Shown here in pieces: positions 5,536 to 64,000 of a stretch of 64,000 nt of DNA. Both the position numbers and the translations under genes were made by a program. Under the pieces are notes generated by a model. It did not search any database. It had not been told where the DNA came from and saw nothing but the letters and a program-made list of their open reading frames with translations. Within the stretch, counting starts at the first letter, position 1. Each line of letters opens with the position of its first letter. Source of the DNA: Eledone cirrhosa (taxonomy: Eukaryota); contig OZ024742.1 of NCBI GenBank assembly GCA_964016885.1, forward strand, positions 131,564,001 to 131,628,000, read 5' to 3'.

Positions 5536-5606
5536 TATATATATATATATACTTGTATGTATGTATGTATGTATGTATGTATGTATGTATATATATATAT
5601 ATACAT

Positions 5607-5910
5607 TGTCAAGGCAGAAATCTAGGAGAAGGAAAACTCAGATATAACACCTGCAACCCTGATGGTATCCAATGATGTTGACTTGTTCTTCTTTTTGGTA
5701 AATATTATCTTGGTTAAGAGCGTGGGACTGGCTTTGTGCAGTGCCTTTGCTCACTATAAAAGCTTCACAGCACAGGCATTGCTTTATATCTGGAGATCTC
5801 TCTGCACTTGTCGTCACATGGTACCAAGTGCCCAGCAATATGTGTCAATAGTTGACACAAGTGTATTGTTTGTACCAGAGTTTTCAAGTCGCTGGCTGGA
5901 CTAAAAAGTT
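5607..5910 (+). mobile_element. Partial copy of the bipartite non-autonomous RTE derivative
   Basis: Near-identical to ~57367-57672. It follows an (ATGT)n/(TA)n tract and is cut on the right by a PLE fragment. Confidence 0.85.
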
Positions 5911-14440: not shown

Positions 14441-14832
14441 ATATCCGTCGCTTCTCTGATGTTGTCTCTCCTCATCTTCACTCATCACATACGCCATGAG
14501 TACTGACATTCGATTCAAGTCTAGTTGAAAGACACAATACCGAGAAGATATCGGTAAAGGATTCCATGTTTCCTATTCGGTTACAGAATTTAGGAATGAT
14601 TAATTTCTACGCTTGATTCATTCAGTTGCTTGATGCCATCGGCTTCACGCTGCTGTACACCATGGATTACTTTCCGCCACAATTTCCGATCTGTAGCAAG
14701 TCTTAGAAAGACTTATTACTGAATTGCACAATTTGGTCTTTTCGATTCTTCAATTACGTTTCATCCTCAAGGTTGTATAGAACTAAATACATACATACAT
14801 AAGTGCATACATAAATACATATATACATACAT

Positions 14833-15180
14833 AGGAAATTACCAGTAAAATCCATTAATGGAAGAGTAGCAATATGTAAAATAGTCCAACAATTCTGCAT
14901 CTAATAACAGCATATACACATGTACAGATACAAAACATATACACATGCACACACACAACTAAAATATACACATCAACACATACAATAACATCTCTACCTG
15001 CACACACATATACATGCGCGCATTCATACAGACATATCTAGTTGATGTTGTGTAAATTCCAATGACAGAGTCATTTACATGACTCTGTCATTGGATTTAC
15101 GTTAGAAACCGACTCTCTCTGGTAAAAAAAACCGACTCTCTATTGGTAAAAATTTGTGAAATTATAAAACTAGAACGAAC
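14833..15180 (+). mobile_element. R4/Dong-like LINE family B, 5'-truncated (ORF end plus 3' UTR), flanked by (CATA)n
   Basis: Reverse complement of 55086-55380; (CATA)n lies on both sides. Confidence 0.8.
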
Positions 15181-15219
15181 ATACATACATATATACATAC
15201 ATACGTACATACATATATA

Positions 15220-15934
15220 CAAGAACCCCCTACCAAATATCTGCTGCACAAAAGGGGAGGGCCAGCAGCTGACAATAAATGTAGGCTATGTAAAACAAAG
15301 ATCGAGGATGTAAGCCACATTGTTGCCAACTGCGAAAGAATGTCATCTCGCTATTACCACCCCATGAGACACGATGGGATAGCTAGAACCATCTGGAACG
15401 CACTTCGGAAAACAAAATTAACAACAAACGAGGAAGAATATATTGAGAGAGATGGCACTAAGGAATACTGGTGGAACCTGAAAATAAAAACTGCCACCAA
15501 ATTAAAGCACAACCGGCCTGATATTGTTGTTTGGGACCACACATTGAAAACGTGTTCTGTTGTGGAGATCAGCTGCCCACTTAATGTAAACGTTGTCAGA
15601 AAAATACAGGAGAAAGAGGACATCTACGGACAATTGATGAGGAGTTTACAAATCCAGTATCCAAGATACACCTTTAGCTTCATACCCATCATTATTGGAG
15701 CTACGGGTTATATACCAACCCGCTTGGACCAAAGTATGATTGAACTTGGATTCGCGGACAAAAAGCGCAGCTCCCTAATTCATAGTCTACAAATGGCTGC
15801 GATAGCTGGCACCTTCAAAATTTGCAAAACATTCTTGCGATTCAAGGGATGACAATTTCTTTTCTTTTACAACTTTGCCACCAGGAAGGTGGCCGGTCAA
15901 AATAATATATTCGAAATTAAGAGAAAGAGATAAC
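15220..15934 (+). mobile_element. R4/Dong-like LINE family A, 5'-truncated (CCHC finger plus restriction-like endonuclease)
   Basis: CRLC..ED.SHIVANC, RHD, HNRPDIVVWD and VEISCP motifs; near-identical to 61565-62280; (CATA)n on both sides. Confidence 0.9.
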
Positions 15935-16049
15935 ATGCATAGTTACATACATAAATACATACATACATACATCAATACATACATACATAACATACATACT
16001 CACACATAAATATATGCACCAATGCTTATATAGTTATTCACATATACAT

Positions 16050-16480
16050 AGAAGAATATTGATAATACCTAAACATAAAATCGCCACCAAATTAAAACAA
16101 CCTACCTGATATTGTTGTGTGTGACAACACATTAAAAAAACAAACATGTATGCATATATTTATGTATGAATGTATGCATAATGTCTGTTTCTAATTAATT
16201 TTGCATTTACCTTTGACCACCCACCTTCCCGGTAGCAAGGTTATAAAGAAGGAAATCTTCTTCGTCACTTGTGCAATCATTCATCCTTTGAATTGTAAGA
16301 ATGTTTTACTGATTTTGAAAGTTTCACATAACGTGCCATTTGTAGTTTATGAATTAAGGAGCTACGAATTTTCTCTACAAACACATGTTCAGTTATACTT
16401 TGGTCCAGACAGGTTGATATATATCCTGTAGTGCCGATAATAATAGCTATGAAACTGCATGTGTATTGTGGCTACTGGAT
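16050..16480 (-). mobile_element. Old diverged family A pieces: small + fragment (16050-16142) and 3' end on - (16180-16480)
   Basis: TTGACC..CCACCTTCC.GGT.GCAAGGTT.TAAA, CATCC.TTGAAT.G.AAGAATGTTTT and ATACTTTGGTCCA align with 61590-61850. Degenerate (ATGT)n at 16146-16180. Confidence 0.75.
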
Positions 16481-16898
16481 TAGCAAACTTTTATACATAT
16501 CCTCTATATATTCTATTTTTCTTCCTACTTTGACATCAAGCTGGTAGTTGACTTCTATACAAAAACATAATTTATTAAAGCATCCAATAATATTGTTCCT
16601 CATGCAAATTGTCCAAATAAAGAAACTAAAGTAAAATGAATTTTATAACGAAATAACAGTAATATTATATTCATAATGGAAAGTGATTTAAATATATCTT
16701 ATGAAAATATAAACCGAAGAATTTGTGAGTTCATTAAAATTTATATATATATAAACAGATATTTGCCCCCCCCCCCCCCACCTATCTCTCTCTTATATAT
16801 ATATCTAATATATATATATAGACTTTTATACTCAATACTACACAATCGGAGCAAAAAGAATAATGAAAATACCACCGTGAACTTAAAAAAGTACTCAA

Positions 16899-54244: not shown

Positions 54245-55085
54245 TATACATACATATATATATAACCAAAGAAAATGATGAGGAAAGGTGCACAACAAGA
54301 AGTAGTTGTAGAGAAATACATAAAAGTAAGATGATTGAGAAGATATAAAAGAAAGGAAAATAAGAATGGTTTGATTGTAAATAAGATATGGCTGACAATG
54401 ATGAAGAATATAATGAAATTGATGAAGATTATCATATGATGGCTGTTATATGAAGATGTTGCTTATGATGGTTATGACCATGACTAAGGAATGAAGATAA
54501 GGGAATGTATAGTTCACCCTCAGACGCTGATTATAATAACGAACAGGTGCTGGACCAGCATCATTTCCTATGTGCCAGTTGCCGGAACAAGGGAAACAAC
54601 ATGTTTCTAATATTAAAATAAAAGTTCGTGAGTATTCCACGTCAAGGTTAACCTTAATTTAGCTCTCAATGAGATGTCGCACGTGTCGAAGCTGGATTTT
54701 TGAATTACTGCTGAAACTCCTTTTTATTTCCCACCAGATGGCCAGGAACGACGTGATATAAAGTGACTTACGCGAGGACACAATGCCCCTCTGGGAATTG
54801 AACTCATGACCTTACGATGCACTTTCACTCAAGAGAATGTATACAAAGTCAGAAAAGTGTACATAACATAACATAAACAAAAATGTTTGATTTATTGGGG
54901 ATCATAAGATGCACTGATTTTTTAGTGGATATATCATATATCAGATAGACATGAATTCTGAATACGGTATATGATAGGGTATAGGGCTAGTATTATAAAG
55001 AAACAGCGTGAAACATGATTAAACATTATGTGTGTATCGATGTAAACATGTATGTTTGCATGTATGGCCGTATGTATGTATGTAT

Positions 55086-55632
55086 ATTCTTCTCGTTATA
55101 TAATTTCACAATATTTTGCCAATAGAGAGAGAGTCGGTTCTAACATAGACACAAGACTCTCTCATTGGAATTTACACATCAACTATGTAGATATGTCTGA
55201 ATGTCTGCATGCATGTGTAGGTATGGATGTTATTGTATGTGTGGATGTGTATGTTTTGAGTTGTATGTGCGCTTTGTATCTGTATGTGCAGTCTGTGTAT
55301 ATGCAGTTATTAGATGCAACATTTATGGTATGTTTTACATATTTTTAGTTCCATTAATGGATTGTACTTGTAATTTCCTAACTAGTTGTGTTATTTCTGT
55401 TCATATGAAGCCCAGCTTCTCAAGATTTGCATTGAGGCAGTTACTAACATATCCCAGTGTCCCAACAATCACAGGCATAAATCTGAAGGTATAATCAGGG
55501 TGGAGTATCTGCAGATTTCTCATTAGTTCTGCATAGATATTCTCCTTTTCGCTAATCTTTGATATTATATTGGCATCTGCTGGGCGCTAACTTCCACTAC
55601 TGTGCATGCCTTCTTATTCCTGTCCCATATCA
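55086..55632 (-). mobile_element. R4/Dong-like LINE family B, 5'-truncated (endonuclease C-terminus plus ~230 bp 3' UTR)
   Basis: Not in the ORF track. Reads WDRNKKACTVVEVS/PADANIISKISEKENIYAELMRNLQILHPDYTFRFMPVIVGTLGYV, homologous to family A; (ATGT)n on both sides. Confidence 0.85.
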
Positions 55633-55656
55633 TTATATCAATGTATGTATGTATGT

Positions 55657-57144
55657 AAAGATCATGTCCACAGTGCTACGCCCAGCCCGAAAGCCCGACT
55701 GCGACTCTGGTAGAGCTTCATCAGCAATGTGGAGCAATAGACGGTCCAACAGAATTGTACAGAGAACTTTGCCGACAAATGACAACAGTGATATCCCACG
55801 ATAGTTTCCGCAGTCATCCCTGTCTCCCTTTCCCTTGTATAAAACAACCATCACAGCATCCTTCCAGTCATCGGGAACATGATTGTTGTTCCAGGCATCC
55901 AGAACCAAAGAATGAAGTCAGGAGGTTCAATGCTAAGTCAAAGGTTCACTTGTCACCAATCAGGGATTTGCTTTATGCAGATGACTGTGACCTGGTAGCG
56001 CACACTGAGATTGATATGCAGCATCTCATGGATGCATTTTCTAAAGCGTGTATTGCATTGGGACTTACCATAAACCTGAAAAAGACAGTAGCCATGTACC
56101 AACCAGCTCCTGGGAAGCCATGTTGTGAGCCCAACATCTTGGTTTATGGTGAACGGCTAAGGGTCGTTGGCAGTTTTGTATATCTTGGAAGCACTCTGAG
56201 TATGTCCTGCGATCTTGATGGGGATACAAAAAGCCAGTGGTGCTTTTGGAAAACTGAACAAGCGTCTCTGTTCTCAACGCGGAATTTCGGTAAAGACAAA
56301 GCTCAAAGTGTATCATGCGTATGTGCTCGCGGCACATATTTATGCTTGTGAGACGTGGGTGCTCTACCGTAGACAGATGAAGCGACTTGAGAGGTTCCAC
56401 CAGTACTGCTTACGTCGGATCCTCGGCATAACCTGGCAAATATTTGTCAGTGACGTCGAGGTTCTAGACAGAAGTGGATGTGATAGTGTAGAGTCCTTGA
56501 TTTTGTACCATCAGCTGCGCTGGACAGGCCATCTTGTAAGGATGAATGACAAGCGAATGCCGAAGCAACTGCTTTATGGCGAGCTCCAAATGGGAAAAAG
56601 GAACGCGAGTAAACCCAAGATGCGTTTTAAGGACTGCATCAAGGGGGCGCTCAAGAAAAGTAACGTCCCTTGTGAGCACTGGGAAGCATGCGCTAGCGAC
56701 CGATCGCATTGGAGGAAAGCAGTGGCTAGTGGCAAGAGTCTGTTTGAGGAAACAAGAATAAGGCACGCGACACTAAAATGAGATGACCGGAAAGGAATCC
56801 ATGTTGGCCTTCCCGAAGGCACTGACAGACGGCCTGACCTGACATGTGAGACCTGTAATAGGGTTTGTCTGAGCATGGCAGGTCTAAAGAGTCACCTGAG
56901 AGTGCACAAGAACAGGGAAGCAGGCACCTGTGGAGCTATAAGTGTTCATCAGACGACGACATGTGATGTTTGTGGAAGGGTATGCAGGTCGCGTAGTGAT
57001 CTCACACGACACCTTGGGTCACATGGTACCATGGGTCCAGCACTAGGTGTCAATAATTGTCACAAGTGTAGTGTTTGTACCAGAGTTTTATACCATGGAT
57101 ATAAAGTAGTGGCCGTACTCGAAAACGAGTTGGCAGCCACCACC
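55657..57144 (+). mobile_element. RTE LINE (family 2), 5'-truncated with inverted 5' segment (55657-55917 on -), RT plus C2H2 fingers
   Basis: Minus strand: LHSLVLDAW..NYRGISLLS..PESQSGFR..DMIF. Plus strand: LLYADDCDL, YACETW, QLRWTGHL, CETC..H..H, CDVC..H..H. Ends in a 3' stem-loop then (ATGT)n. Confidence 0.92.
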
Positions 57145-57203
57145 ATGTATGTATGTATGTATGTATGTATGTATGTATGTATGTATGTATGTATGTATGT
57201 ATG

Positions 57204-57755
57204 TCGGGTCGTTGGCGACTAAACTGGCAACCCCACCAAGGTTTCTTGGTGAGGAGGGTGACTTTGGACATCCTGCAGGACTAAAAACAAAACCTGTCAA
57301 AGGGCAAGGGAGCTCTTAAGACTCAATAGCCATCCAAAATCACCGGGAGAGATGACCCCTTAGCCTTTGTCAAGGCAGAATTCTAGGAGAAGGAAAACTC
57401 TGATATAACACCTGCAACCCTGATGGTATCCAATGATGTTGACTTGTTCTTCTTTTTGGTAAATATCATCTTGGTTAAGAGAGTGGGACTGGCTTTGTGC
57501 AGTGCCTTTGCTCACTATAAAAGCTTCACAGCACAGGCATTGCTTTATATCTGGAGATCTCTCTGCACTTGTCATCACATGGTACCATAGGGGCCCCGCA
57601 CTATGTGTCAATAATGGTCACAAGTGTAGTCTTTGTACCAAAGTTTTCAAGTCGCTGGCTGGACTAAAAAGTCACATTCGTTCAGCGCATCGGTAGGGGT
57701 TCTCCTACATGGATATAAAGTAGTGGCCGTACTCGAAAACGAGTTGGCAGCCACC
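57204..57755 (+). mobile_element. Bipartite non-autonomous RTE derivative (5' UTR-like head fused to RTE 3' end)
   Basis: Head GGGTCGTTGGCGACTAA...CTAGGAGAAGGAAAACTCTGA. The 3' half matches 57020-57144 and encodes the CSLC..FKSLAGLKSHIRS finger remnant. (ATGT)n on both sides. Confidence 0.8.
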
Positions 57756-57776
57756 ATGTATGTATGTATGTATATA

Positions 57777-60445
57777 TGGTACGCACAAAAGTGAAACTAA
57801 TCACTAAACGAAAAATCCGGGCTCCTGGTGTTGCCCTGCCCCAAAGATTGAATGCTGCTCGTCTTAAGGATAAAAATGTGAAGAGGACATTGGAAGAAGA
57901 GATGCAGGCTGCAGATCTTGGTGAGGATTGGCCGACCCTTAAAAAGTCGGTTTATGATGTAGGCAGGCGTGTACTGGGATTGGTGCAGAGAAAACATCAG
58001 GGCTGGTTTAATGAGAATGATGTACATATAGAAGACTTGTTGGCTGATAAGAGGAGTGCTCTGTCACGCTACTTGACGGCAAAACCACAGGAGAGGAATA
58101 CGGTGCATGAGGAACTCAGGGATGTAAAATCACGTGTTAGGCGGAGTCTTTCTCAGATGAAGGATCAGTGGTGGAGTGAGAAGGCTGGTGAGATACAAAC
58201 TGCGTCAGATTCCAATAACACAAAGCTGTTGTACAGTCTCTTGCGTGAGGTTTATGGACCGTCTTCTTCTCTGGTGACACCGCTTCGCAGCAAGGATGGC
58301 AAAGAACTTCTTCGTGACTCACAAGGAATTCTACGAAGATGGCGAGAGCACTTTAAAAATCTTCTGAATCAGCCGTCTGTCGTCAGTGAAGATTTCCTCA
58401 ATCTCATTACAGAAAGTCCTGTGAAAGTAGCTCTCGCAGAACCTCCGACGCTTGTGGAGGTTGCAGTGGCTATTTCGAAGCTGAACAGTGGAAGATCTCC
58501 AGGTATGGATGGCATATATACTGAGCTCCTACAATATGGTGGTGAGAGACTCCTGCAACATCTTCACTCTTTGTTTGGCAGGATATGGGCTAATGAATCC
58601 GTACCTGAGGACTGGAGAGATGCAGTAATGGTGGTCTTGTACAAGGGAAAGGGTAACAGGAATGATTGTGGAAACTACAGAGGTATATCATTGCTTTCTG
58701 TCGTAGGGAAAGTTTTATGTAGGGTGCTTCTGAACCGTCTGCTGACACACATTGCAGATTGTGTTCTTCCTGAAAGTCAATCTGGTTTTCGTGTTGGACG
58801 CGGCACTACTGATATGATCTTCTCAGCTAGACAGCTCCAGGAGAAGTGCATGGAACAAGGCTTGGATCTGTATCAGGTTTTTGTCGATCTGACAAAAGCT
58901 TTCGATACTGTTAACAGAGATGCATTATGGAAGGTTCTCCAGAAACATGGTTGCCCTGATAAGTTCCTTGCTTTAGTTAGGTCTTTCCATGACGACATGA
59001 AGGCTTGGGTTAATGTCGGAGGTAACATGTCGGAGCCTATCTCAGTAAAAAATGGAGTGAAACAGGGGGATATTCCAGCACCGACCCTGTTTGCCATATA
59101 CTTTGCAATGGTTTTCTGTATTGCATTCAGGAATTGCGAGCATGGTGTTTACATCCGATATCGAACCTCAGGCAACATATTTAACATCAGGCGCTTTGCT
59201 GCGAAGACAAAAGTATTTACATCAATCATAAGTGACCTCTTGTATGCAGATGATTGCGATCTTCTAGCGCAGACAGATAGTGATATGCAGCACATTTTGA
59301 ATGCATTTTCTGGTGCTTGCAATGCCCTAGGATTGACTGTCAGTCTCAAGAAAACCGTCGTCATGTACCAACCTGCCCCTGGTAAGCAGTACACTGAACC
59401 AAACATCTATGTGTATGGCAAACGACTTGGAGTGGTTGATCAGTTTGTCTACCTGGGAAGCACTGTCAATCGATACAGCAACCTTGACAGTGAAATCTCA
59501 CTTAGGATTAGGAAAGCAAGTGATGCTTTCGGAAAGCTAGAAAGGCGACTCTGGGGTCGACGAGACATATGCAGCAGGACAAAGGTAAAGGTGTACAGGG
59601 CATGTGTGCTCTCTTGTCTTCTTTATGCCTGCGAGACCTGGGTCACGTATCGACACCACCTTAAGCAATTGGAGCGTTTCCATCAGATGTGTCTCAGACG
59701 GATCCATGGCGTTCACTGGAGGGACCACATCAGTGATGTCGAGATTTTGGAAAGCTCTATGTGTGACAGTATAGAAGCTCTTGTGCTGAAGCAACGACTC
59801 CGTTGGAGTGGTCACCTTGCCAGGATGAAGGATTCTAGAATACCAAAACAACTCTTTTATGGAGAGTTGGTTAAAGAAAAACGACCGCCACATAAACCAA
59901 ACAAGAGGTATAAGGATTCCTTGAAAGCCTCTCTGAAAGACGCTAACATCTCTGCTGATACATGGGAAAATATTGCTGCTGATCGTAATAAATGGAGAAA
60001 GACTGTATATGAGGGAAAAGTTGCCTTTGAGGCATCACGAATCGCATACGAGAAAGTAAAGCGGGATGTGAGGAAGGGCATTGCTTTTGCACTTCCAGAC
60101 GGCGAGGGTCCTCCTATGGTGATGACATGCAGCGTCTGTGCGAGACTCTGCCTAAGCGAAGCTGGACTCGAAAGTCATCTTCGCAGTCATAAAGTAAGAC
60201 CAGTGGTTGACTACCAGGCTGCTGTTGGAGATGCTACTCATCATGCTTGCCAAACATGTGGTAGAGAATGTATATCAGCAGGAGGGCTCAAGCGACATAC
60301 AACAGTACACGAACTCCAACCACAGCCGACTATTCCCAGTGAATGTTTTGGTTGTCGACTCTGTGCAAGACATTTTAGATCCTTTTAGATCATTTTAGAT
60401 CATTCGCTGGGCTAAAAAGCCACATTCGATCGCAGCGCTGTTAGT
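57777..60445 (+). mobile_element. RTE (BovB-like) LINE family 1, 5'-truncated, open RT ORF with three C-terminal C2H2 fingers
   Basis: 874 aa ORF with SPGMDGI, NYRGISLLS, FVDLTKAFDTV, GVKQGD, LLYADD and LRWSGH. The APE domain is missing; a 10 bp triplication (C.TTTTAGAT) frameshifts the last finger. Confidence 0.95.
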
Positions 60446-60659
60446 TGCTATCGTGTGTGTGTGTGTGTATAGATATGCTTATGTGTGTGTGTGTATGTGT
60501 ATATATATATATGTATATGTATATTATTATTGTTGTTGTCGTTATTATATTGTTGTTATTATTTTTATTATTATTATTGTTATTAATGTATGTGTCTGTG
60601 TGTGTGTATATGTGTGTATATGTGTGTATGTATGTATATATATATATACATACATACAT

Positions 60660-60888
60660 TATAAAAGCTTCATGGCACAGACATTGCTTTATATCTGGAG
60701 ATCTCTCTGGAGATCTCTCGTCACATGGCCCAGCACTACGTGTCAATAATTGTCACAAGTGTAGTGTTTGTACCATAGTTTTCAAGTCGCTGGCTGGACT
60801 AAAAAGCCACACTCATTTAGCGCATCGGTAGGGGTTCTCCTACATGGATATAAAGTAGTGGCCGTACTCGAAAACGAGTTGGCAGCCA

Positions 60889-60890
<2 letters not shown>
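60660..60890 (+). mobile_element. 3' part of the bipartite RTE derivative
   Basis: Matches 57517-57755 including GTGGCCGTACTCGAAAACGAGTTGGCAGCCACC. Confidence 0.85.
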
Positions 60891-60940
<50 letters not shown>

Positions 60941-60998
60941 TTTTAATTTTTATTTTTTTTTGTTTATTTATTATTATTATTATTATTTATTTTTTTCT

Positions 60999-61040
60999 CC
61001 TCGTGCAATGGCCATACTCGATAACGAGGGGGCAGCCATC
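60999..61040 (+). mobile_element. Minimal RTE 3' stem-loop insertion with (ATGT)n tail
   Basis: ATGGCCATACTCGATAACGAGGGGGCAGCCATC followed by ATGTATG... Confidence 0.7.
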
Positions 61041-61072
61041 ATGTATGATGTATGTATGTATGATGTATGTAT

Positions 61073-61330
61073 GTTCTTCTGGTTTTATAATTTCACCAAT
61101 TTTTTACCAATAGAGATAGAATCGGTTTCTAACATAGACACAAGACTCTCTCATTGGAATTTACACAACATCAACTAAGTAGATTATGTATGCATGCATG
61201 TGAAGATATGGATGTTATTGTATGTGTGGATGTGTATGTTTTGAGTTGTATGTGTGCATGTGTTTATGCTTTGTATCTGTACATGTGTATATGCAGTTAT
61301 TAGATGCAACATTTTTGGAATGTTATATAT
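61073..61330 (-). mobile_element. R4/Dong-like family B 3' UTR copy inserted in an RTE tail
   Basis: Matches 55086-55335; ATGT repeats on both sides. Confidence 0.85.
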
Positions 61331-61339
61331 CTATGTATG

Positions 61340-61534
61340 TTAGTCTACTTTTCGGGTAGTGTTTTTGATGGTCAGAGAGTGCAAGGCCTTTCCCCACTTA
61401 AAATCCTTCAAAGCACAGGCATTGCTTGTTTAGGATATGTTGCAGGTTTGTGTGACTGGCCGTAGCCTAAAAGTACACCAAACTCTATAATCTGACAAGC
61501 GATGTCAGTACTCTTAGCAGAGTTTCCAGCCATC
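61340..61534 (+). mobile_element. Diverged RTE-derived non-autonomous fragment
   Basis: CTTCA.AGCACAGGCATTGCTT is shared with 57524; ends ACTCT TAGC AGAGT TTCCAGCCATC followed by (ATGT)n. Confidence 0.7.
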
Positions 61535-61564
61535 ATGTATGTATGTATGTATGTATGCATGTAT

Positions 61565-64000
61565 GTTTTCTCTTTCTCTTAATTTCGAGTATATTTTTTT
61601 GACCGGCCACCTTCCTGGTGGCAAGGTTGTAAAAGAAAAGAAATTGTCATCCCTTGAATCGCAAGAATGTTTTGCATATTTTGAAGGTGCCAGCTATCGC
61701 AGCCATTTGTAGACTATGAATTAGGGAGCTGCGCTTTTTGTCCGCAAATCCAAGTTCGGTCATACTTTGGTCCAAGCGGGTTGGTATATAACCCGTAGCA
61801 CCAATAATGATGGGTATGAAGCTAAAGGTGTATCTTGAATACTGGATTTGTAAGCTCCTCATCAATGGTCCGTAGATGTCCTCCTTCTCCTGTATTTTTC
61901 TGACAACGTTTACATCAAGTGGGCAGCTGATCTCCACAACAGAACACGTTTTCAATGTGTGGTCCCAAACTACAATATCAGGCCGGTTGTGCTTTAATTT
62001 GGTGGCAGTTTTTATTTTCAGGTTCCACCAGTATTCCTTAGTGCCATCTGTCTCAATATATTCTTCCTCGTTTGTTGTTAATTTTGTTTTCCGAAGTGCG
62101 TTCCAGATAGTTCTAGCTATCCCATCGTGTCTCATGGGGAGGTAGTAGCGAGATGACATTCTTTCGCAGCTGGCAACGATGTGGCTTACATCCTCGATCT
62201 TTGTTTTACATAGCCTACATTTATTGTCAGCTGCTGGCCCTCCTCTTTTGTGCAGCAGATATTTGGTAGGGAGTTCTTGTTCCTGTATTGCATAGAGATA
62301 TCCCTCAAGGTGTGATGTCATAAACTTGTCGGAACTCCATGCCAGGCTTTTTGAGTGGTTTATCCCCTCTATGGTCTGTGTTTTACGCCTCAAGTATCCA
62401 TGCACAACTTTCTCTGTAAATTGGTCAATTTTTTTTCTTGTTTGAACATTGAATAGGATCTTCCGATTTCTCTGGGTGAGAGATTTATATCAGGCTTTAT
62501 TCCATATCTCTCCTCCAGATCAGTCGCTATTCTAATGATATTTCTTTTTTCATGCTCATAAACCTGAGCAAGATGGTCGCCAACCTTTTTCCTCTGTTGA
62601 AGGTGTTGCTTCAGTGTTACTATCCGGGTCTCATATGTTGTTAATATTGATTTTAGACCCCGGCCACCTTCCTTGCGTGAGAAGTATAGCCTATCCACAT
62701 CACCATTGATGTTAAAGTTCCCAGTAACACTGAGAAGTTTACGAGTTCTAACATCCATCTCACTTAGTTCTTGCAATGACCAGTTCAGTAGGCCAAATGT
62801 TGGCGTTAGAATTGGCACAGCATAGGTATTGTGGGCAATGTATTTGTTGTATGCTGACAGTTCTGATGATCATATTTTTTTTTACTCTTCTGAGGTATTC
62901 AGTTCTGGTTCTCTCCTTATTTATGGGTCCATCATATCTGACATTCTCATCCTGTCCAAGATATCTGTAGTTGTCACCTGACTGCAGAGGTTGTATTGTC
63001 AGGCCGTTCATATCTAGATTTCTAGAGGAGGGCACAGCTCTTCCACGTTTTACTGCCAAATATGCACACTTGGACTCACTAAATTTCATTTTGATGTCGG
63101 TTGAAAATTGTGTAATGAGGTCCAATTGTTTCTTGATGTCATTGATATTTGGCCCATACAACTTCAGGTCATCAACAAAGAAAAGATGGGAGATACTTCT
63201 GGGCCCACTTCTTTGTCCACCTTGTTTCCTGAGTAGGTAAGATAGTGGATTCAGTGAGAGAACGAAGAGTAGTACTGACAAGCTATCACCCTGAAAGATG
63301 CCCTTCTGGTAATGTATCCTATCAGTCTTAACCTGCTCCTTCTCACCTCTAAGGATCAAATTGGTGTACCAGTTCTTGGTCAGGCGTTCAACAGCAGCTA
63401 CTAATGGTTGTGGGACTTTAGCTAACTGTAAAGCCTTAATAATCCACCCATGAGGTACACTATCAAATGCTTTTTGATAGTCCAGCCACACGACAGTCAT
63501 GTTTCTGCGATTCTTTGTTGTTTTTTCCTGAATCATTTTGTTAGTTAGTAGGTGATCTATGCAACCCCACACCTCCCTCTTTCCACCAGCTTGCTCAGGT
63601 GTTATGATGTTGTTGGTAGCACAGTGATCCTGTAAGAACAGGTTAAGGCACCCAGTATATAATTTATGCATGATGTTTTGGCAGGCAATTGGGCGGTAAT
63701 TTTTAGCAAGGGTGGTTTGGCTATTTTGGGGAATGAGGAGAGTAGTGGCAGTTGATAACCATCTGGGCAGTTCTTGTGTGCCCTTAATGGTTTCTGTAAA
63801 CAGCCGTATGAGATCTTGCCGATAGAAAGTGAAATTCTTCAACCAGTATCCTGTAATGAGGTCTGGGCCTGGCGATTTCCTATTCGACATTTTCTGTAGA
63901 GCTGTTTCCAGTATTGACCCATCTATGTCATATTGTTTTGTCTGGACATGTTGGCAGTAGTCCTGTTCCAGTTGTTTTAGCCAATTAGCTTGTCTGTTGA
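61565..64000 (-). mobile_element. R4/Dong-like LINE family A (RT, CCHC, restriction-like endonuclease), two frameshifts, runs off the window
   Basis: KSPGPDLI, NYRPIAC, WLDYQKAFDSVPH, GIFQGDSLS, HLFFVDDLKLY, YRYLG, RKEGGRGL, CRLC, RPDIVVWD; 3' end GAGAAAAC followed by (ATAC)n. Confidence 0.93.

Follow-up and report, generated by a model that had tools for sequence, protein, structure and literature searches.

Long interspersed elements (LINEs) of the Dong/R4 clade carry a single open reading frame (ORF) with a reverse transcriptase (RT), a CCHC motif and a restriction-like endonuclease, lack an N-terminal zinc finger and enter microsatellites in a fixed orientation (PMC7998251), with (TAA)n being the Dong target in most insects, molluscs and cnidarians (PMC7998251). 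Insertion sites of RTE elements have been described as not sequence-specific, with duplications of 6-12 bp (PMC2887409), or as bearing a T-stretch/TA signature (PMC6007223, PMC13295347); the RTE 3' repeat is related to the target (PMC6007223), and bipartite RTE derivatives that join a 5' untranslated region (UTR) to a 3' end, such as Bov-A, RTESINE and WALLSI3, are known (PMC5786205). Waldo, of the R1 clade, is ACAY-specific (PMC3812793), and further parts of the literature behind these comparisons of Dong TAA, Waldo ACAY, RTE sites and bipartite RTEs are found in PMC3774820, PMC4640811 and PMC3124438. Among cephalopods, RTE and Dong-R4 elements are reported to have been active recently in O. 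vulgaris (PMC13282606), and the 3' UTR of an octopus RTE is rich in microsatellites (PMC9115989). Here we analyse a window of 64,000 nucleotides (nt) from Eledone cirrhosa (assembly GCA_964016885.1, contig OZ024742.1, positions 131,564,001 to 131,628,000), the right end of which holds a nest of RTE-type elements (RTE1, RTE2, SINE-a, SINE-c) and two R4/Dong-like families, A and B. The original prediction for this nest was that (ATGT)n tails of RTEs serve as landing pads for (CATA)n-specific R4/Dong-like LINEs.

Families A and B resemble Bombyx Dong, DongAg, DongBg and Darwinula Dong in ORF layout and in having a microsatellite target entered in fixed orientation, but their target is (CATA)n at both junctions instead of (TAA)n, and they form a branch separate from TAA-ending relatives, together with three (CTTA)n elements. 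RTE1, RTE2 and SINE-a share with the RTE clade and its bipartite members the APE and RT domains, the 3' hairpin, the microsatellite-like end and derivatives composed of a 5' UTR and a 3' end; unlike described RTEs, they lie for the most part in ATGT/TA tracts, where they show strand polarity, and duplications of 36-53 nt occur in a few copies. Waldo and A/B target the same class of repeat, whereas Waldo elements are APE-type insect elements and B has a C-terminal restriction-like endonuclease; the two targets are convergent. The octopus RTE (PMC9115989) is like RTE2 in its microsatellite-rich 3' UTR, as judged by its description only, and the octopus RTE and Dong-R4 accounts give no target sequence, polarity or nesting in the passages available. 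In the literature accessible to us, where subscription papers are thinly covered, we found no report of R4/Dong and RTE elements sharing one repeat on opposite strands, nor of a CATA- or CTTA-targeting R4/Dong element, the targets of which may already be recorded in Repbase or in supplements of the octopus papers.

The stack is real, and polarised RTE/R4 nesting occurs genome-wide, but one element parasitising the tail of another is not what the data show. We consider it likely, with a probability of about 0.78, that RTE and R4/Dong-like elements enter the same pre-existing ATGT/TA tracts in opposite orientation, each group nicking a different strand. The sample for B comprised the 30 best-match copies and, from contig 1, the first 30 exact matches to its end; that for A comprised 29 copies. 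Both families are bordered at either junction by CATA, read on the strand of the element, and the (CATA)n specificity predicted for them was borne out: 5' flanks are enriched for the repeat, being CATA-polar in 29/29 best-match and 17/19 contig-1 copies of B and in 20/28 copies of A, none of which showed the opposite polarity. A perfect run of at least 20 nt touched 37 of 45 B 5' junctions, compared with 0.025% of 59,640 random positions, and in the 3.0 Gb assembly the B end is joined to CATAC 1,346 times, in a fixed 3' register. Since most sampled copies are 5'-truncated, the CATA repeat at the 5' flank of A and B is target and not tail.

RTE1, RTE2 and their bipartite derivatives are likewise bordered on both sides by ATGT or TA, though with less strictness than A and B are by CATA. 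Their 5' flanks were tract-like in 68/108 cases (SINE-a 25/30, RTE1 14/27, RTE2 9/21, unselected RTE1/SINE-a ends 20/30) and ATGT-polar in 73/108 (27/30, 16/27, 10/21 and 20/30, respectively), whereas 7.2% of random 40-mers were tract-like; the random rates derive from 600 kb of evenly spaced genome stretches, which hold too few long tracts to provide a tract background. Genome-wide, at least eight perfect ATGT units stand in front of 1,573 of 9,346 intact RTE heads (17%) and behind 3,655 of 25,394 RTE1/SINE-a 3' ends (14%), both shares being somewhat high because the numerators use shorter signatures than the denominators. As heads have long ATGT runs in front of them as often as tails have them behind, the RTE "tail" is mostly target. 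Some SINE-a copies are followed at their ends by (TA)n and others by (ATGT)n, and locus L226 has a 53-nt duplication with almost no element-borne tail. Of 78 RTE-type copies searched for flanking duplications, only 5 gave non-repeat evidence, and two of these are mostly repeat. The RTE1 target-site duplications at L226 and L228 (~53 and ~36 nt) are longer than the 6-15 nt reported for RTE.

Strand polarity holds well beyond the nest. Among sampled loci of all anchors, RTE and R4 neighbours separated only by a tract were antiparallel in 66 of 69 pairs (p=2e-16), so that orientation relative to the repeat strand is non-random; the three exceptions adjoin broken interiors of R4-like copies. Neighbours of the same group were parallel (R4-R4 32/32, RTE-RTE 32/37), pieces of the same element and three RTE1 5' inversions being left out. 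Neighbour pairs may recur between anchor sets, as no de-duplication was applied, and the counts omit the window's own loci (L031, L171, L201) and mis-anchored B 5' ends (L288, L289, L306). The background consisted of 18 long tracts chosen without regard to neighbours; among their 20 neighbours, 15/15 RTEs read with ATGT and 5/5 R4-like elements against it.

That RTE insertions lay down (ATGT)n tails which A, B and later RTEs prefer as landing pads is, by these data, very unlikely. About a third of B 3' ends do face an RTE 3' end (19/60), but B faces the 5' side of an RTE just as often (18/45; p=0.41), A faces an RTE 3' end in 4/29 cases and an RTE 5' side in 4/28, and for both families pooled the values are 23/89 for RTE tails and 22/73 for RTE heads (p=0.60). 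Unselected long tracts have an RTE 3' end at the same rate (6/18; p=1.0 against B), which leaves no enrichment of R4-like copies at RTE tails at the present sample size. The 3,655 long runs that start at an RTE1/SINE-a end could be read as laid-down tails, yet they make up only 6.3% of the 57,781 perfect ATGT runs of at least eight units; heads bear such runs as often as tails, and the repeat behind SINE-a ends is TA in some copies and ATGT in others. B is the less diverged partner in 15/19 facing pairs, as expected of a later arrival, whereas A is mostly older than its RTE neighbour, and a nest at window positions 14832-16560 consists of R4-like pieces only. With head-to-head pairs as common as tail-to-tail ones, we reject, at this sample size, the RTE tail as a landing pad. 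From the proposed self-feeding nest, the continued supply of target survives; the RTE as creator of that target does not, tracts being present on the RTE 5' side too (68/108). Passive accumulation, in which untargeted insertions survive or are assembled in repeat-rich neutral DNA, could draw on the abundance of microsatellites (7% of random 40-mers are tract-like), but is scarcely credible in view of the strand polarity (66/69), the fixed 3' register of 1,346 B ends and a pattern that is strongest in the youngest copies.

Other observations weigh against shared, pre-existing tracts or limit them. RTE specificity is loose, with 5' flanks not tract-like in 40/108 and of opposite polarity in 14/108; L173 hints that a few units may come with RTE2 itself, which would also favour tail landing pads; and at least three tail-to-tail cases of B with other RTE stems (L007, L012, L307, by eye) were missed by the count, which would become ~22/60. 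The background is small and local (18 tracts, first 5.5 Mb of one contig) and leaves room for a modest tail excess. Reads and contigs of four runs yielded no empty allele for B or SINE-a, which is not evidence of fixation, and the word "pre-existing" rests on symmetry and 5'-truncated copies rather than on a before/after pair. Simple tract splitting does not explain why the run at the B 5' junction (median 60 nt) is much longer than that at the 3' junction (median 20 nt; 38/45; p=1.6e-6); either long runs are bound and cut near their downstream end, or repeats are added by B. The latter would mean that B (and A) build their own target, a 5' CATA run being made or lengthened during insertion, so that the R4-like elements feed the nest. 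It is an unlikely explanation with some points in its favour: the long 5' run is not a plain duplication, since a variant base 7-15 nt from the 3' junction is not repeated at the 5' side in many copies, and young B copies that lie beside old RTE-type ends, the nest copy included, have pure 5' runs. However, runs of at least 20 units are common (39,729 overlapping matches; ~12,000 runs estimated from the matches listed) and far outnumber the 1,346 B ends, and a choice of long runs with cutting near the downstream end fits equally. The broader proposal, that a tetranucleotide-targeting lineage sister to Dong, with (CATA)n as target here and (CTTA)n in another host, shares the two strands of one repeat with a microsatellite-targeting RTE lineage while its R4-like members lengthen the repeat on their 5' side, giving self-growing, strand-ordered nests genome-wide, seems doubtful to us.

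Insertion of both groups into common pre-existing tracts, which we prefer, suggests a mechanism in which A and B would target the tracts strictly and RTEs loosely. In target-primed reverse transcription, the strand that serves as primer is complementary to what follows the element's 3' end; therefore, the predicted nick would lie on the ATGT strand for B and A and on the CATA strand for RTEs. The N-terminal three-helix domain of B and A may bind the long upstream CATA run, after which their restriction-like endonuclease would nick the ATGT strand in fixed register, whereas the RTE APE would nick the CATA strand and the RNA end (...CCAU) could pair at the nick. Each insertion would split a tract and leave target on both sides, some RTE insertions also duplicating 18-53 nt; later elements of either group could therefore land again, giving ordered nests. 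Landings of the same group would be head-to-tail, those of the other group tail-to-tail or head-to-head equally often, and the order of insertion would be set by which family was active when.

Divergence is consistent with more than one order. B had a median substitution divergence of 0.0% (75 copies, some of them chosen as best matches); the medians were 2.3-2.6% in A, 2.4% in RTE1/SINE-a ends, 1.8% in RTE2 and 7.3% in SINE-c, the probes being short (78-260 nt) and the order blurred by subfamilies. In facing pairs, B was less diverged than its RTE partner in 15/19, in line with the RTE-before-R4 order originally proposed, whereas A was the more diverged in 10/14 pairs with RTE1/SINE-a and in 7/7 with RTE2, which reverses that order and rules it out as a general one. 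In the window, B (0%) likely inserted after SINE-c (8.2%), and RTE2 (2.0%) likely after, or at the same age as, A (3.8%).

Annotation of the nest by BLAST of the window against natural copies gave the following features:

55049..55087, no strand: degenerate ATGT tract at the left nest edge, no RTE end adjoining, likely part of the founding tract
55088..55639, minus strand: family A, 5'-truncated, 3' end at 55088, 4.7-6.5% diverged (BLAST)
55646..55919, minus strand: inverted 5' piece of RTE1, family positions 2159-2432 (BLAST)
55918..57146, plus strand: 5'-truncated copy of RTE1 that includes the 3' hairpin and has a small internal 3' deletion (BLAST and folding)
57143..57202, no strand: (ATGT)15 tract
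57203..57756, plus strand: SINE-a without its first 58 nt, 99.3% identity to the youngest copies (BLAST)
57777..60656, plus strand: RTE2, 5'-truncated, with RT ORF (PF00078), C-terminal zinc fingers and the first part of the microsatellite-rich 3' UTR
60657..60891, plus strand: SINE-a, 5'-truncated, inside the ATGT/TA stretch of the RTE2 3' UTR
60892..61041, plus strand: rest of the RTE2 3' UTR and terminal stem, one element with 57777-60656
61042..61074, no strand: ATGT tract at the tail-to-tail junction of RTE2 and A
61075..61330, minus strand: family A, short 3' copy, 3.8% diverged (RTE2 2.0%)
61350..61535, plus strand: 3' part of SINE-c, an RTE-type, non-autonomous and older family; divergence 8.2%
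61536..61565, no strand: ATGT tract at the tail-to-tail junction of SINE-c and B
61566..64000 and on to window-equivalent 65787, minus strand: full-length copy of family B (4.2 kb), its 3' end showing a substitution divergence of 0%

The dense stack with ATGT-type gaps (0-60 nt between neighbours) stood as first described, and its count was corrected from about nine insertions to eight, five of them RTE-type rather than six and three R4/Dong-like. RTE2 had been counted twice, because its ORF and microsatellite-rich UTR are separated in the window from its stem by a 5'-truncated SINE-a; in other copies ORF, UTR and stem are contiguous, which makes the stem at 60970-61041 the true RTE2 3' end. 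To the right of the B copy follow ~100 nt of ATGT, and the nest ends at ~65,890, past the window end. All RTE-type pieces lie on the plus strand except the inverted 5' part of RTE1, all R4-like pieces on the minus strand, and the tail-to-tail junctions were recovered at 61041/61075 and 61535/61566. The starts at 57203 and 57777 do lie directly behind a preceding RTE 3' end; the element at 57203, taken for an RTE copy, is a 610-nt RTE1 derivative. Elsewhere in the window, the second nest at 14832-16560 comprises an A-like piece, B, a B-like fragment and a B-related family on the other strand, with CATA behind the own 3' end of each piece and RTE absent, and a SINE-a fragment at 5606-5909 (plus strand), just behind an (ATGT)8 run, obeys the polarity rule. 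The (TTA)n/TA stretches of the RTE2 3' UTR are often hit by other repeats (window 60460-60970; L173, L184, L186, L188).

The RTE and R4/Dong-like identities of the original prediction were right, as judged by the domain content of B, A, RTE1 and RTE2. The nest copy of B is frameshifted at homopolymers; its sister copies measure 4,223 nt, with a single 1169-amino-acid ORF in four full-length copies. The protein is ordered RT, CCHC, restriction-like endonuclease of the PD..D type (Pfam RVT_1 and zf-RVT; the CCHC and RPD..E motifs by direct reading of the sequence), and R2 proteins head its PDB matches both by sequence and by fold. Pfam gave no hit for an APE domain or an N-terminal zinc finger in B or 13 aligned relatives. 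Examined for a diverged Myb/SANT-like domain, the N-terminus of B shows three predicted helices at residues 22-74 (pLDDT 72-86), with no Pfam Myb hit and a fold search of the low-confidence model reaching only Z up to 6. Family A, of which no intact copy was seen, has the same motifs and 50% amino-acid identity to B, so the two are relatives and not unrelated LINEs as had been stated. Neither Rfam nor a simple but unvalidated descriptor of hepatitis delta virus (HDV)-like ribozymes gave a match at the 5' ends of A and B.

Among named relatives, the one nearest to B is a protein from Argonauta hians (65% identity over 60% of the query); a cluster look-up gave named proteins from Argonauta only, and a search of viral contigs found no relative. 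A metagenome contig search retained 80 loci, of which 24 were inspected. Relatives with 43-49% identity to B lie inside (CTTA)n, which borders L354 on both sides, L353 on the 5' side and L357 on the 3' side; two more of similar identity have no visible tract, and most of those inspected at 27-38% identity end in (AAT)n. In quick trees with midpoint root, the second omitting three loci as too short, A and B fall together with the three CTTA elements (SH-aLRT 100) and away from the TAA-ending set, of which the element to the immediate right of the nest is a member. At ~30% identity, the TAA-ending branch is the sister of A and B, in trees that contain no named R4/Dong protein. A and B thus probably belong to a lineage sister to TAA-targeting Dong, in which other members with visible ends lie in (CTTA)n. 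The element just right of the nest (L061:2438-4387) represents a third R4/Dong-like family, in (TAA)n, tandem and with 33% identity to B; this Dong-type family, with its (TAA)n target, also occurs at L116, L117, L127 and L134.

B is a young and intact (1169 amino acids) restriction-like-endonuclease LINE with ~1,350 near-identical ends and a new repeat target, and together with its TAA- and CTTA-targeting relatives it provides a natural series for the study of target-specificity switching. RTEs, usually called non-specific, are concentrated here in a single class of microsatellite and show strand polarity in it; what looks like an RTE "tail" can be target, which calls for caution. For cephalopod genomics, hotspots of transposable elements find an explanation, and ATGT tracts are predicted to be poor markers and hard to assemble.

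RTE1 (L242) and RTE2 (L247) encode APE (Exo_endo_phos) followed by RVT_1, frameshifted in the copies seen, with UTR only and no separate ORF1 upstream; domain order and UTR anatomy make them putative members of the RTE clade. Both have a 3' hairpin with a microsatellite-like end, and the 3' stem-loop of the original prediction was recovered in RTE1/SINE-a ends, which fold as hairpins of ~-15 kcal/mol. SINE-a is a 610-nt bipartite non-autonomous RTE1 derivative, its positions 1-434 matching the RTE1 5' UTR (97%) and 433-612 the RTE1 3' end (95%; reference L242). An internal deletion thus joins the ends of the partner LINE, and there is no RNA-derived head; for SINE-c, no autonomous partner was found. 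The first 130 nt of SINE-a, RTE1 and SINE-c form a conserved, structured-looking head with a fixed start (L141-L170, L001), which could be an unrecognised self-cleaving RNA; a ribozyme search at the 5' ends of RTE-type elements gave no match to Rfam or the HDV descriptor. Behind the 3' end of a B copy at L022, at least four truncated SINE-a copies form a head-to-tail array that repeats every 460 nt. RTE1 copies often have an inverted 5' piece (window 55646-55919; L207, L213, L219), as is best known for L1, where it results from twin priming.

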